64,000 nt of DNA, taken from positions 1,488,001-1,552,000 of the forward strand of contig NW_027117346.1 of the NCBI RefSeq assembly GCF_038025025.1, read 5' to 3'. The stretch's first letter is position 1. Each line of letters starts with the position of its first letter. The DNA is from Phyllosticta citribraziliensis (lineage: Eukaryota). The position numbers and the translations under genes are program-made. Below the pieces are notes generated by a model. It was not told where the DNA came from. It searched no databases and saw nothing but the letters and a program-made list of their open reading frames with translations. Positions 33,221 through 37,273 of this stretch are shown here, one piece after another.

Positions 33221-34047
33221 GAGAAACAACGACTGGCAGGGAGAAAGGAAAGACGCGCAGGAGAGAAGAGCAGGAGCAGTTGTATAAAAGCTGCCGGGGT
33301 GGTGGGCCGGCGTTGGGCGATAACTAGCTTGGTTTATCTGGTGGAGCTAATGTTTGACACGCGCGAATTAGACGACGTTGGCGGCGGCGGGAATTATATA
33401 GAGAACTGAAGTATAGATTGGAAAGATGGTTATCGACGAGCAAAGAAGGATGCGCCGCGAGCATGCACTCCACAGCATTGATCGGAGCCGCGTCCACGGG
33501 AGACGGCTGTGATGCGCCAAGGCGCGGGCTTCAGGGATGCGGGGGCAAAATTTTTTGTGCAGGTGGCCAGGCGTGCAGGAAGGACGAGAGCCGAAATGTT
33601 TTTTTGTTTTTGGTCTGATCCGACCTGGTTGCTCGGATTCGGGCTGCTGTGGCCGTGGTGTTTGGATTGGATTGGATCGCTGCACTGGCGAGTGGTGGCG
33701 GCGGCCAACGTCTTGGGCACTGGTCGCTTACCCGTCGACTCTCGTGCCTGTGGGAGTCCAGTCGGTGGATCCGCATGACGCCCGCTGGAGCACAACAAGC
33801 GACGCAATAATAGCAGAACAGAGCCCAAAGCACCAAGTTTTGTCCCCTCGTCCCCATTGTCCGTCCCCCAACCGTCCTCTCCCTTCCTCCACCACCTCTC
33901 CCCCCATCTCTCGACGCACAGCTCCCCCCGCAGTCGTCGAGCCCCGTCGCTGGCCTTTTTCGCTCCAGCACCAGCGCATCCGTGTGCCCACCGCGCTGCA
34001 AAACTCGCCTCTGCTCGACCCCGCCGTCCTTCGGCACCACCGCCATC

Positions 34048-35480
34048 ATGAGCTCCCAGCAGCAGCAGGCCAACGACGCCGAGAAGAACATTGAGATATG
34101 GAAGGTCAAGAAGCTCATCAAACGCCTCGAAGCCGCCCGTGGCAACGGCACCAGCATGATTTCGCTCATCATCCGTGAGTCGCTCTCGCTCTCGCCCACG
34201 CCTCGCGCTGCCTGGCTCCCACACAAGTGCTGACTGTAGCTCGCAGCCCCCAAGGACCAGATTTCGCGCATCTCCAAAATGTTGGCTGAAGAATACGTGC
34301 GTCGGCGCCCACACTAACTGCCTGTGCTCCCGCTGAAAGTCTTTAGGGTACCGCCTCCAACATCAAATCGCGCGTCAACCGTCTCTCCGTCCTTTCCGCC
34401 ATTACCTCGACCCAACAGCGCCTGAAGCTTTACTCCAAAGTCCCGCCGAATGGCCTCGTTGTCTACTGTGGTGAAATCATCACCCAGGAGGGCAAGGAGC
34501 GCAAGATCAACATCGACTTTGAGCCGTTCAAGCCAATCAACACCTCGCTCTACCTCTGCGACAACAAGTTCCACACCGAGGCCCTGAGCGAGCTGCTCGA
34601 GTCGGACCAAAAGTTTGGCTTCATCATCATGGACGGTAACGGAGCTCTGTTTGGTACTCTGAGCGGCAACACTCGCGAGGTCATCCAAAAGTTCTCGGTC
34701 GACCTGCCCAAGAAGCACGGCCGTGGTGGTCAGTCTGCGCTGCGTTTCGCACGTCTGCGTGAGGAAAAGCGTCACAACTACGTCCGCAAGGTGGCCGAGT
34801 TGGCCGTCCAAAACTTCATCACCAACGACAAGGTCAACGTGGCTGGTCTGATTCTGGCTGGTTCCGCCGACTTCAAGAACGACTTGAACCAGTCCGACCT
34901 GTTCGATGGGCGCCTGCAGGCCAAGGTCATCAAGGTCGTCGACGTCTCGTATGGCGGAGAGAACGGGTTCAACCAGGCCATCGAACTGGCTTCCGAGACT
35001 CTGAGCAACGTCAAGTTTATCCAGGAGAAGAAGCTCATCAACAAGTACTTTGAGGAGATTTCCCAAGACAGCGGCAAGGTCTGCTACGGCATCGAAGATA
35101 CGCTCAAGGCTCTCGAGCTCGGTGCGGCCGAGATTCTGATCGTCTACGAGAACTTGGAAATCACGCGCTGGACCTTGAAGAGCTCCGAGGGCGCCGAGGT
35201 TATTCTTCACACCAACAAAACGCAGGAGGAAGACCGTAGCCTCTTCATGGACAAGTTGACTGGCCAAGAGATGGAGATTGTCGACCAGCAGTCCTTCCTC
35301 GAGTGGCTCGCCGAAAAGTACAGCGACTTTGGTGCTACCCTCGAGTTCGTCTCGGACCGCTCCTCCGAGGGCAACCAGTTTGTCAAGGGCTTTGGTGGAA
35401 TCGGTGCCATTCTGCGCTACAAGGTCAACTTTGAACAGCTCGCCGATTACAGTGACGATGACGAATTCTACGATGATTGA
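34048..35480 (+). CDS. SUP45: Eukaryotic peptide chain release factor 1
   Basis: Exons 34048-34174, 34247-34296 and 34347-35480. Motifs [23 protein letters not shown] and GRGGQS. Confidence 0.99.
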
Positions 35481-35653
35481 CGGTTTGGTACCCTCGCAGT
35501 GAGCGAGGAAGCTCTCCCAGAGAAGGCTACTCCCGGCACTCTGACGGCTCTTCCTCGCGTCGAGCGTCGCGTTGGCGCTCAGGAGCTGGAGAATGGTGTC
35601 GCACCGTTCCCATGCCGCTCCATGTTGTAGGGAGTCGAGAAACAAAGACCTCG

Positions 35654-35697
35654 GTGAGTATTGGAAACACGTGCTCCAGGCGTAGCTAATTCGCCAG
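35654..35697 (+). other. Predicted 44-nt intron in the eRF1 3'UTR
   Basis: GTGAGT donor (35654), GCTAAT branch (35685-35690) and CAG acceptor (35695-35697); size is typical of introns in this window. Confidence 0.75.
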
Positions 35698-36129
35698 AAT
35701 GCTCGAGAAAGCATCAGATGAACTAGTCTGGACGGTACTTGCTCGGACTCGTGATACCCACGGCACGGCTTGGAGCCGGGAGCGCGCAGGGCGTCCTCGC
35801 TCCAAGACGAAAAGAAGCGGGCAGGTGGCGGTTACACTTTCAATGTAGCAGCAGAGGTCTTTTTTTGATTACCTCGAATTGATTTCAGATTGTCAAGTAG
35901 TGATCCAGTGGGTCAGCAATAAAGAAGTGGTTTCCTTGCCTATGTACCCGCCAGCACCTTGAGATTTTGCCCACCGCAGTCTGCCTCACCGCTCGGCCCG
36001 ATGCGTTTAGCGCCTCGGGCATTTTTACACGGTCATCGGTCTTCAAAGACGTCGATAAAAGGCACTCCAAGCGGCTACCATGATATCAGGGTCAAATTGA
36101 CTTTTTGACTCTCCTTTACAACGGTCATC

Positions 36130-37273
36130 ATGACTCAAGAAACCGTCGCCTTCCTGGGGCCCAGGGCTTCGTATACACACCAGGTATTAGCTTTTTGTAT
36201 TGTCATTTTCACGTACCCTTTCGCTAGCGCTCCACAAGCATGGCCTGTCTCTTTATCAACTGTCCCCGATCTCGCAGCACTAAGGATTTCAGGCAGCGCT
36301 CGATTCGTTTGACGAGCAAAAGTACAAGTTGCGGCCGGTGGTCAACATCGAAGACGTCTTTGCGGCCGTCCAACACGACGAGGCCTCATATGGAGTCGTG
36401 CCGGTGGAAAACTCGTCCAACGGGGCCGTCATCTTCACGCTGGATCTCTTTGCCGACTTGAAAGACCGATATCCAGATATTTTGATTTGCGGCGAAGCCT
36501 ACGTCCGCATCCAACATTGTCTGCTTGGCCGAGCACCGCCCAAGTCACCATTTGCCAGCGATGTCCTCTCTTCTCCAAGCGATTCTGGCGCCGCAACTCC
36601 CACGCTGGACTCTCCGGATCCCGCAAAGCCGCAAACCAAGCCGTTGGTCAACATCAGTCACGTGAAGAAGCTGTACTCGCACCCTCAAGCGTGGGGCCAA
36701 TGCAAAAACTTCCTCAACACGTATCTCAAGGGTATCGAGAGGCAGGACTGCTCGTCGACGTCGCGGGCTGCGGAGGAAGCCGCAAAGGACGAGACGGGAC
36801 GCAGCGCGGCCATTTCGAGTGCCACGGCGGCCAAATTGCACGGGCTTGACTTTTTAGCCCAAGGAATTAACGACTTTGACGACAACACGACGCGCTTCTT
36901 TGTACTGCGGCGGCGAAGCTCGTCCGAAATGGAGACGCTTGCCGACTCCTTCTCCCCGCGAGACTTTGCTGCAGGCGCATCGGACGACGACATGGACAGC
37001 TACAAGTCGCTCGTCTCGTTCACGGTTGAAGAACACAACCCAGGCGCTCTGGCCGACTCTCTCGGCGTCTTCAAGCCGTATAGACTCAACCTCACCAGTG
37101 TCAATACCAGGCCGAGCGGCGTGGAGAAGTGGAACTACATTTTCTTCGTCGAGTTCCGTGGCAGGCGGCTCGAAGGCACGCGCGGGGCTGTCAACAGCGC
37201 GCTGAGGGATCTGGGCAAGGTGGCCAAGAGCTGGAGATGGCTGGGTAGCTGGCAGAGCAAGCCAAGCGCGTGA
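36130..37273 (+). CDS. PHA2: Prephenate dehydratase
   Basis: Exons 36130-36183 (VAFLGPRASYTHQ) and 36293-37273. Motifs YGVVPVENSSNG, LYSHPQAWGQC, NTTRFFVL and ACT-domain NLTSVNTRPS. Confidence 0.96.

Follow-up and report, generated by a model that had tools for sequence, protein, structure and literature searches.

The 64,000-nucleotide stretch of Phyllosticta citribraziliensis DNA analyzed here (contig NW_027117346.1, positions 1,488,001 to 1,552,000; hereafter the window) holds a gene for the translation release factor eRF1 (sup45-type), and the 3' end of this gene probably serves as a sensor of eRF1 supply in a filamentous ascomycete, with readthrough of the eRF1 stop codon protecting the mRNA from nonsense-mediated decay (NMD). 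The arrangement comprises a TGA stop in a readthrough-prone context (stop 1, 35478-35480), a hairpin, an in-frame extension that ends at a second stop (stop 2, TAG, 35628-35630), and an intron in the 3' untranslated region (3'UTR); all features described below lie on the + strand and are numbered from the first base of the window. As read from the sequence, the locus is one more instance of a known circuit, eRF1 readthrough coupled to NMD, that is common among these fungi, and the predicted design is the rule in the filamentous-ascomycete-like eRF1 genes sampled.

The eRF1 coding sequence (34048-35480) consists of three exons (34048-34174, 34247-34296, and 34347-35480), the last of which closes with the TGA, and encodes 436 amino acids plus the stop. 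Exon 3 matches the Pfam families eRF1_1, eRF1_2, and eRF1_3 (E 2.7e-15 to 1e-48) and the translated protein is a full-length eRF1 in which the NIKS and GGQ motifs are present, which identifies the product as a class-I release factor. Contigs from four public sequencing runs (three studies) were compared with positions 33800-36200: two runs (X1 and X2) yielded contigs identical to the window, and two RNA-seq runs labelled plant metagenome (X6 and X7) yielded those of a relative that departs from the window at about 2% of the compared places. The contigs reach from about 33873 to 35856-35932, and the coding introns (34175-34246 and 34297-34346) are missing from those of all four runs, which marks the contigs as cDNA-derived.

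The 3'UTR intron (35654-35697, 44 nt) has a GTGAGT donor, a branch-like CTAAT at 35686-35690, and a CAG acceptor. Positions 35653 and 35698 are joined in the contigs of all four runs, with 44 nt skipped between GT..AG borders; no unspliced contig was seen in these runs, rare forms being beyond what contigs can show. As far as contigs can show, the intron is removed just as efficiently as those of the coding sequence. Its donor lies 173 nt past stop 1, well over the approximately 50 nt associated with decay, and 23 nt past stop 2. The earlier note on this DNA had described the same layout, with TGA followed by CGG, 49 in-frame codons (35481-35630 with the stop) whose peptide ends in PFPCRSML, TAG at 35628-35630, and an intron from 35654 at these two distances; all of its coordinates and the peptide are correct, the splice junction that it proposed to check is present, and the hairpin that it named only in its title exists at 35492-35508 (CCTCGC-AGTGA-GCGAGG).

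In the proposed mechanism, ribosomes would terminate at the UGA at 35478 when eRF1 is plentiful, the exon junction complex (EJC) deposited about 20-24 nt upstream of the 35653/35698 junction would stay in place, and the mRNA would be degraded by EJC-dependent NMD. A shortage of eRF1 would slow termination at the weak UGA-CGG-UUU, and the hairpin 11 nt past the stop, at the entrance of the mRNA channel, would aid readthrough, so that a near-cognate tRNA would decode the UGA and the ribosome would translate 49 more codons to the UAG at 35628. There its A site would coincide with the EJC position, 23-25 nt ahead of the junction; the EJC would be stripped, the mRNA would escape decay, and more eRF1 would be made. 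The concentration of eRF1 sets the fidelity with which every stop codon in the cell is read, and an eRF1 that senses its own activity through its own stop codon would be a compact form of translational homeostasis. The structural predictions of this model hold at the locus and are conserved in relatives well above controls, as described below.

Relatives were collected by scanning metagenome contigs with the exon-3 protein, which gave 80 loci, about 55 of them with 83-93% protein identity to the window and a filamentous-ascomycete gene structure. The first 300 nt after the stop were clustered at 90% identity into 47 groups including the window, and L006, with only 101 nt past the stop, was dropped, leaving 46 non-redundant 3' regions (45 metagenome loci and the window). 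L053 is counted among the 46, and L049-L051 were looked at separately. Outside the set are L026-L030, L032, L052, L062, and L065-L080 (yeast-like, non-fungal, or distant eRF1, 67-80% identity), which mostly stop at TAA or TAG. Five yeast-like loci among them (L026, L027, L029, L030, and L052) lack the design: their stops are TAA or TAG and the hairpin motif is absent from the 57 A/T-rich bases that follow. The 3'UTRs of the relatives align to the window only in patches of 32-80 nt, so the post-stop regions have diverged almost completely. Significance was sought in the relatives because the window taken alone is not beyond chance.

The context of stop 1 (35475-35491) reads GAT TGA CGG TTT, followed by the remainder of an 11-nt spacer, and places the UGACGG hexanucleotide of the type II readthrough signal at 35478-35483. 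The stop codon is TGA in all 46 regions and the next base is C in 44, both exceptions being TGA-TGG-TT; the last sense codon is GAT in 45, though GAT makes up only 0.46 of Asp codons in coding sequence. Where the window has UGA-CGGUUU, relatives use UGA-CAGUUU or UGA-CAAUUY. The main stop therefore stands in a conserved context, which its sequence predicts to be leaky. The earlier note had ranked UGA-CGG as the leakiest context of all; it holds up as a readthrough motif but not by itself, because the accessible part of PMC13517186 describes viral UGA-CGG readthrough as needing a downstream stem-loop, and the hairpin would hence be an important partner.

At the same stop, a predicted intron (47-88 nt where found) splits the last eRF1 sense codon in 33 of the 80 loci, two bases before the stop, in the pattern ...TAY GAY G|gt...ag|AT TGA C... 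(at about 2680-2800 in most loci). The loci are L003, L005, L007, L009, L011, L012, L017, L018, L020-L023, L025, L033, L035, L038-L042, L048-L051, L054-L056, L058, L060, and L063. Once spliced, these loci would have the same stop context as the window, which has no intron there, and the exon junction would fall 2 nt ahead of the leaky stop; in L049-L051 the last eRF1 codon becomes GAA through this intron.

The frame that follows stop 1 is open for 44-198 codons in 46 of 46 regions (median 72.5), compared with at least 44 open codons in only 5 of 46 and 7 of 46 for the other two frames (medians 15 and 2; Wilcoxon p approximately 5e-9 and 9e-9). Together with the conserved TGA-C, this bears out two of the features for which an alignment of orthologous 3'UTRs had been suggested.

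Hairpin 1 (35492-35508) is a 6-bp stem, CCUCGC / AGUGA / GCGAGG, that starts at +15 counting from the U of the UGA, after the 11-nt spacer. Its motif occurs once in the window, where 0.08 occurrences are expected, and once each in 52 of the 80 related loci, by position the +15 sites. Counted by regular expression, since the alignment misplaced L043, L045, and L063, CCUCGY-loop-RCGAGG begins exactly at +15 in 41 of 46 regions, with a loop of 5 nt in 33 and 8 nt in 8, and a closing pair of C-G (29), U-G (7), or U-A (5); CCTCG at +15 to +19 is retained in 43-45 of the 46. The codon at +13 to +15 encodes nine different amino acids, yet ends in C in 43 of 46 regions, and the codon after it is CUC in 44 of 46, compared with a 0.35 share of Leu codons in coding sequence. 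Likewise in the 3' arm, one codon encodes six amino acids and always ends in C, and GAG is used in 41 of 41 cases versus a 0.68 share in coding sequence. Because third codon positions are constrained while the amino acids vary, this codon pattern shows selection on the RNA rather than on the peptide that it encodes. In the five regions that lack the CCUCGY motif, a hairpin of different sequence occupies the same place: GGCUC/GAGCC in L043 and L045, GGCUCC/GGAGCC in L053, a longer stem in L021, and a version with 5 bp in L008. The distant eRF1 L076 (about 75% identity) shares the GGCUCC/GGAGCC stem of L053. According to the part of PMC13517186 at hand, the mRNA channel takes up about 11-12 nt past the A-site codon, so with its 11-nt spacer a hairpin at +15 would stand at the channel entrance when the UGA is in the A site. 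A structure starting about 8-13 nt past the stop is thus found at a fixed place, and would stimulate readthrough, although its folding energy is not significant by z-score. A search of Rfam gave no family for 35300-36000, only two sub-threshold chance matches (sR39, 18.2 bits; mir-2772, 16.1 bits).

L053 (2812-2850) and L076 (1380-1415) have TGA-CG followed by a GGCUCC-loop-GGAGCC hairpin at +13 or +14 and open extensions of 103 and 118 codons, respectively. These are distant eRF1 genes (67% and 75% identity) with C-terminal tails unlike those of ascomycetes; they are probably non-ascomycete, and the eRF1 readthrough design may reach beyond Ascomycota.

A second, clade-specific hairpin (35516-35547, CC-CAGAG ... 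CUCUG-ac-GG) appears in the minimum free energy and centroid folds. In 18 related sequences, 94% of the cells of hairpins 1 and 2 pair, versus 31-39% for slid partners; the fifth position of hairpin 2 is occupied by a GC, UA, CG, or AU pair, and is unpaired in 7 of the 18 sequences. RNAalifold on 20 sequences predicted hairpin 1 only, without hairpin 2. From the pairing count in the 18 sequences and the single-sequence folds, hairpin 2 is probably real in the window's subgroup. Its 3' side is made by a second UGACGG (35542-35547), at +65 from the first and in the +1 frame, that also occurs at this distance in L003, L007, L008, L011, L014, L023, L040, L042, L048 (as UGACGA), and L064. The consensus around it in the window's subgroup is UCUGACGGC.

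Stop 2 is coupled to the intron. Introns of the relatives were predicted with a strict rule (GT[AGT]NG[CT] donor, CTRAY branch, [CTA]AG acceptor, 42-130 nt) in 44 genomic regions, that is, the set of 46 less the spliced mRNA-like L036 and L047, with L006 likewise out. A predicted donor lies 0-40 nt past the zero-frame stop 2 in 15 of 44 regions, compared with 0 of 44 and 2 of 44 for the first stops of the other frames and 0-5 of 44 for windows shifted along the UTR. The gaps are 6, 9, 14, 15, 18, 20, 22, 22, 22, 23, 23, 23, 34, 34, and 35 nt, 20-23 nt being the commonest. When the same motifs were applied to candidates up to 750 nt past stop 1 and the donor closest to stop 2 was kept, 11 further regions showed a zero frame that, after splicing, continues across the junction to end 15-128 nt beyond it, some of these candidate introns lying far from stop 2 and being doubtful (L002). 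The mRNA-like L036 and the genomic L037 differ in length by 61 nt around a predicted 58-nt intron, with no clean joint, which is suggestive of splicing there. In the window, stop 2 sits at -25 to -23 relative to the junction, and the EJC is expected 20-24 nt upstream of a junction (PMC5397192, available in part). Whether stop 2 lies near the junction or the frame runs across it, a readthrough ribosome would reach the expected place of the EJC.

At the end of the extension, the window's subgroup has a recurrent sequence: the last codon is always TTG, followed by TAA or TAG (window 35626-35633; L011, L012, L042, L056, and L057). TTG-TAA-G/A reads as a donor-like G|GTAAG, and in L011 a candidate intron from there would delete stop 2. 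The window has TTG TAG GG, and its RNA contigs splice from the donor 23 nt further downstream.

The extension matches no Pfam family; its middle is unalignable and its length varies four-fold among relatives. Its end is different in 13 regions, whose last 12 codons align gaplessly from stop 2 as R-P-S-P-L-R-S-V/M-M-T-A-S, with switches among Ser codons (AGC/TCG/AGT) and Arg codons (CGN/AGG). In these 13 relatives, the ratio of nonsynonymous to synonymous differences (pN/pS, Nei-Gojobori) of the last 12 codons in the zero frame is 0.265, falling to 0.108 in a seven-codon core, versus 0.92 in the 12 codons immediately upstream and above 1 for the same bases in other frames. These ratios show that the extension end of this clade evolves as protein, from which it follows that the extension would be translated there. 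The window's tail, P-F-P-C-R-S-M-L, resembles P-S-P-L-R-S-M-M-L-A of L017 and the RPSPLRS(V/M)M motif. A similar motif, RSxLRxMV, forms the extension end of one clade, there encoded past the exon junction.

Tails in the window's subgroup close with x-[RL]-[SA]-[MHR]-L, and the window's SML had been suggested to resemble a type 1 peroxisomal targeting signal (PTS1). The canonical PTS1 tripeptide is of the [SAC][KRH][LM] type. SML, which ends the extension in the window and in L011, falls outside this pattern, so the suggestion fails for the window; it succeeds for 4 of 46 relatives, whose tails end in ARL (twice), SRL, and AHL. Such endings compare with an internal-tripeptide frequency of 0.0017 (binomial P 1.4e-6, which overstates the case because the loci are related).

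The conserved tails allow an explanation in which readthrough mainly makes a C-terminally extended eRF1 isoform, or a nascent peptide at stop 2, and the intron is secondary; the tail might be a targeting signal, a degron, or a nascent peptide acting in the ribosome at stop 2. The protein-like evolution of the last 12 codons, the RSxLRxMV ending past the junction in another clade, the PFPCRSML tail of the window, and the PTS1-type endings of four non-independent loci all point that way. An extension of 44 to 198 codons with an unalignable middle at a pN/pS of 0.92 does not, nor does an SML outside the PTS1 pattern, and the extended protein of plants is described as inactive and not conserved in the sections of PMC5397192 that were accessible. 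Because an isoform alone would also leave the coupling of stop 2 to the intron unexplained, we regard it as an unlikely main purpose, and one that can coexist with an NMD circuit.

Several observations weigh against the sensor. In the window alone, at least 49 open codons arise by chance with a probability of 0.12-0.15 (base composition, 56% G+C), 25% of all stop-to-stop runs are at least 49 codons long, and frame +2 is also open, for 68 codons, at the same place. Folding of the first 75 nt past the stop gives -22.2 kcal/mol (z +0.56), a stability matched or exceeded by 142 of 200 shuffles. RNAalifold found 0 compensatory pairs in hairpin 1 among 20 sequences, classical covariation being thin because the stem bases are nearly invariant; in 18 sequences, 8 of 500 shuffles reached the covariation score, and the number of pairs with both partners changed was no better than in shuffled sets (228 of 500). 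The relatives' introns are motif predictions, the window's being the one verified by RNA, and the rule left 19 of 46 regions without an intron candidate, two of them contigs that look like spliced mRNA. Visual inspection of the 19 shows a donor-like GT 21-36 nt past stop 2 in 7 and, in another, L023, a donor just ahead of stop 2 that would carry the frame across the junction. Selection on the peptide was seen in a clade that excludes the window, and the extension of the RNA-seq relative differs from the window's at 2 places only (one Val-to-Ala, one synonymous), which is uninformative either way.

If the open frame and the hairpin were incidental, the intron would be a constitutive NMD trigger with no role for readthrough. 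Its splicing more than 50 nt past the stop speaks for this, as do the window's own frame and fold, neither of them significant. The relatives make this very improbable: the zero frame is open in 46 of 46 regions versus 5 and 7 for the others, TGA-C is kept in 44, the hairpin is fixed at +15 under RNA-level constraint, stop 2 is tied to the intron, and the extension shows protein-level selection. A functionless arrangement that arose by chance in a GC-rich 3'UTR, where long frames are common, is already refuted by the conservation across 46 non-redundant regions and by the verified splicing, and its probability is negligible. A sensor of eRF1 supply is the reading that we retain.

More tentatively, the fungal sensor may have two extra parts, a virus-like bipartite readthrough signal and a protein-conserved extension end. 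The first would consist of UGA-CGG-UUU (CAR-UUY in relatives), the fixed 11-nt spacer, and the hairpin at +15, across all 46 Pezizomycotina-like regions; as to the second, the last approximately 12 residues of the extension would lie in the ribosome tunnel at stop 2, on the EJC site, and in the window's subgroup these residues close with PTS1-like tripeptides. If this is true, the readthrough product or its nascent chain has a job of its own, which might be to keep the ribosome parked on the EJC site, to eliminate the extended eRF1, or to send it elsewhere.

Beyond the sensor, the last 3'UTR exon (35698-35932) contains an AATAAA at 35918-35923; the RNA contigs terminate between 35856 and 35932, and the poly(A) site cannot be fixed from them. 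On reading of the printed sequence, the C-rich 5'UTR (33873-34047, about 175 nt under the RNA contigs) contains no ATG and hence no upstream open reading frame as an alternative NMD trigger. The downstream neighbor (36131-37273, +) is a prephenate dehydratase gene (protein-atlas score 0.97 to PF00800 clusters). RNA contigs break within it at 36184 and resume with the letters from 36294 onward, one G being ambiguous, which indicates an intron of about 109 nt (36184-36292, GT..AG).

The closest known system is erf1 of Neurospora crassa, the same gene in the same phylum, for which a study names readthrough, a 3'UTR intron, and NMD, the ingredients found here, in its title, by which alone it is considered here (Kurilla et al. 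2020, FEBS Lett 594:3504; Zhang & Sachs 2015, Genetics 200:1133). In N. crassa, NMD elicited by a spliced 3'UTR intron needs EJC factors, according to the available part of PMC10578600. The eRF1 circuit is unmentioned in PMC9661723, and in the text examined of PMC5009743 eRF1 is absent, the sole Pezizomycotina passage concerning a frameshifting gene. The earlier note had presented the locus as extending the circuit to another ascomycete lineage. The layout does extend, being present in all 46 regions, and for that reason the claim of a new lineage is a modest one; its novelty was overstated, the Neurospora circuit being, by title, already the subject of a 2020 paper. The abstract of that study by Kurilla and colleagues reportedly proposes similar circuits in many fungi. 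In the literature searched, with the 2020 study beyond its reach, we did not find the fixed +15 hairpin with RNA-level constraint, the replacement stems in distant eRF1 genes, or the conserved extension end.

Plant eRF1-1 has an 'RT-NMD 3'UTR': fewer than 25 nt separate the next stop from the 3'UTR intron downstream of it, and the more frequent the readthrough, the better the mRNA is shielded from the NMD that this intron induces (Nyiko et al. 2017, NAR, PMC5397192; this and the following from the portion available). The two systems share a leaky stop, an open frame, and a stop 2 near a 3'UTR intron, and the plant stop context is likewise extremely conserved. They differ in that the plant gene uses UAG-CAAUCA (type I-like) and this fungus UGA-CGGUUU, that the available description of the plant gene mentions no downstream hairpin, and that the plant extension is reported as inactive and not conserved (PMC5397192), whereas one fungal clade has an extension end under protein-level selection. 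Fungal metabolic enzymes in which UGA readthrough exposes a cryptic PTS1 (Freitag 2012; Stiebler 2014; both by title) are a further parallel, in that fungal UGA-C readthrough adds a short tail. For eRF1, the last three residues of the tail are of the canonical PTS1 type in 4 of 46 relatives; the window closes with SML, which lies outside the pattern, its context is CGG rather than CUA, and most relatives have other endings.

The viral type II readthrough signals provide the nearest likeness for the stop and hairpin. In the part of PMC13517186 at hand, UGA-CGG readthrough in VEEV and Colorado tick fever virus (CTFV) needs a stem-loop starting at +12, and the UGA CGG UUU of the window is the VEEV row of its Table 1. 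Both have a structure after a spacer of at least 8 nt, at +12 in VEEV and CTFV and at +15 here. The differences are that eRF1 is a cellular gene and that its hairpin has 6 bp, with a second hairpin in some clades, compared with an extended viral stem-loop of 78-177 nt (PMC13517186). The UGA-CAA-UUY found in some relatives is similar to the type I motif described there.

The locus adds an RNA-verified case to the circuit, and the 46-region comparison yields a general plan that can be tested in filamentous fungi, in which an invariant UGA-C is followed, at the length of one mRNA channel, by a hairpin and then by a second stop on the EJC site. If the hairpin turns out to stimulate readthrough, it would be a new cellular counterpart of the viral type II readthrough signals, and if the conserved extension end is functional, a layer is added to the published model. 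Short of either, the locus is a well-annotated example of a mechanism already known.

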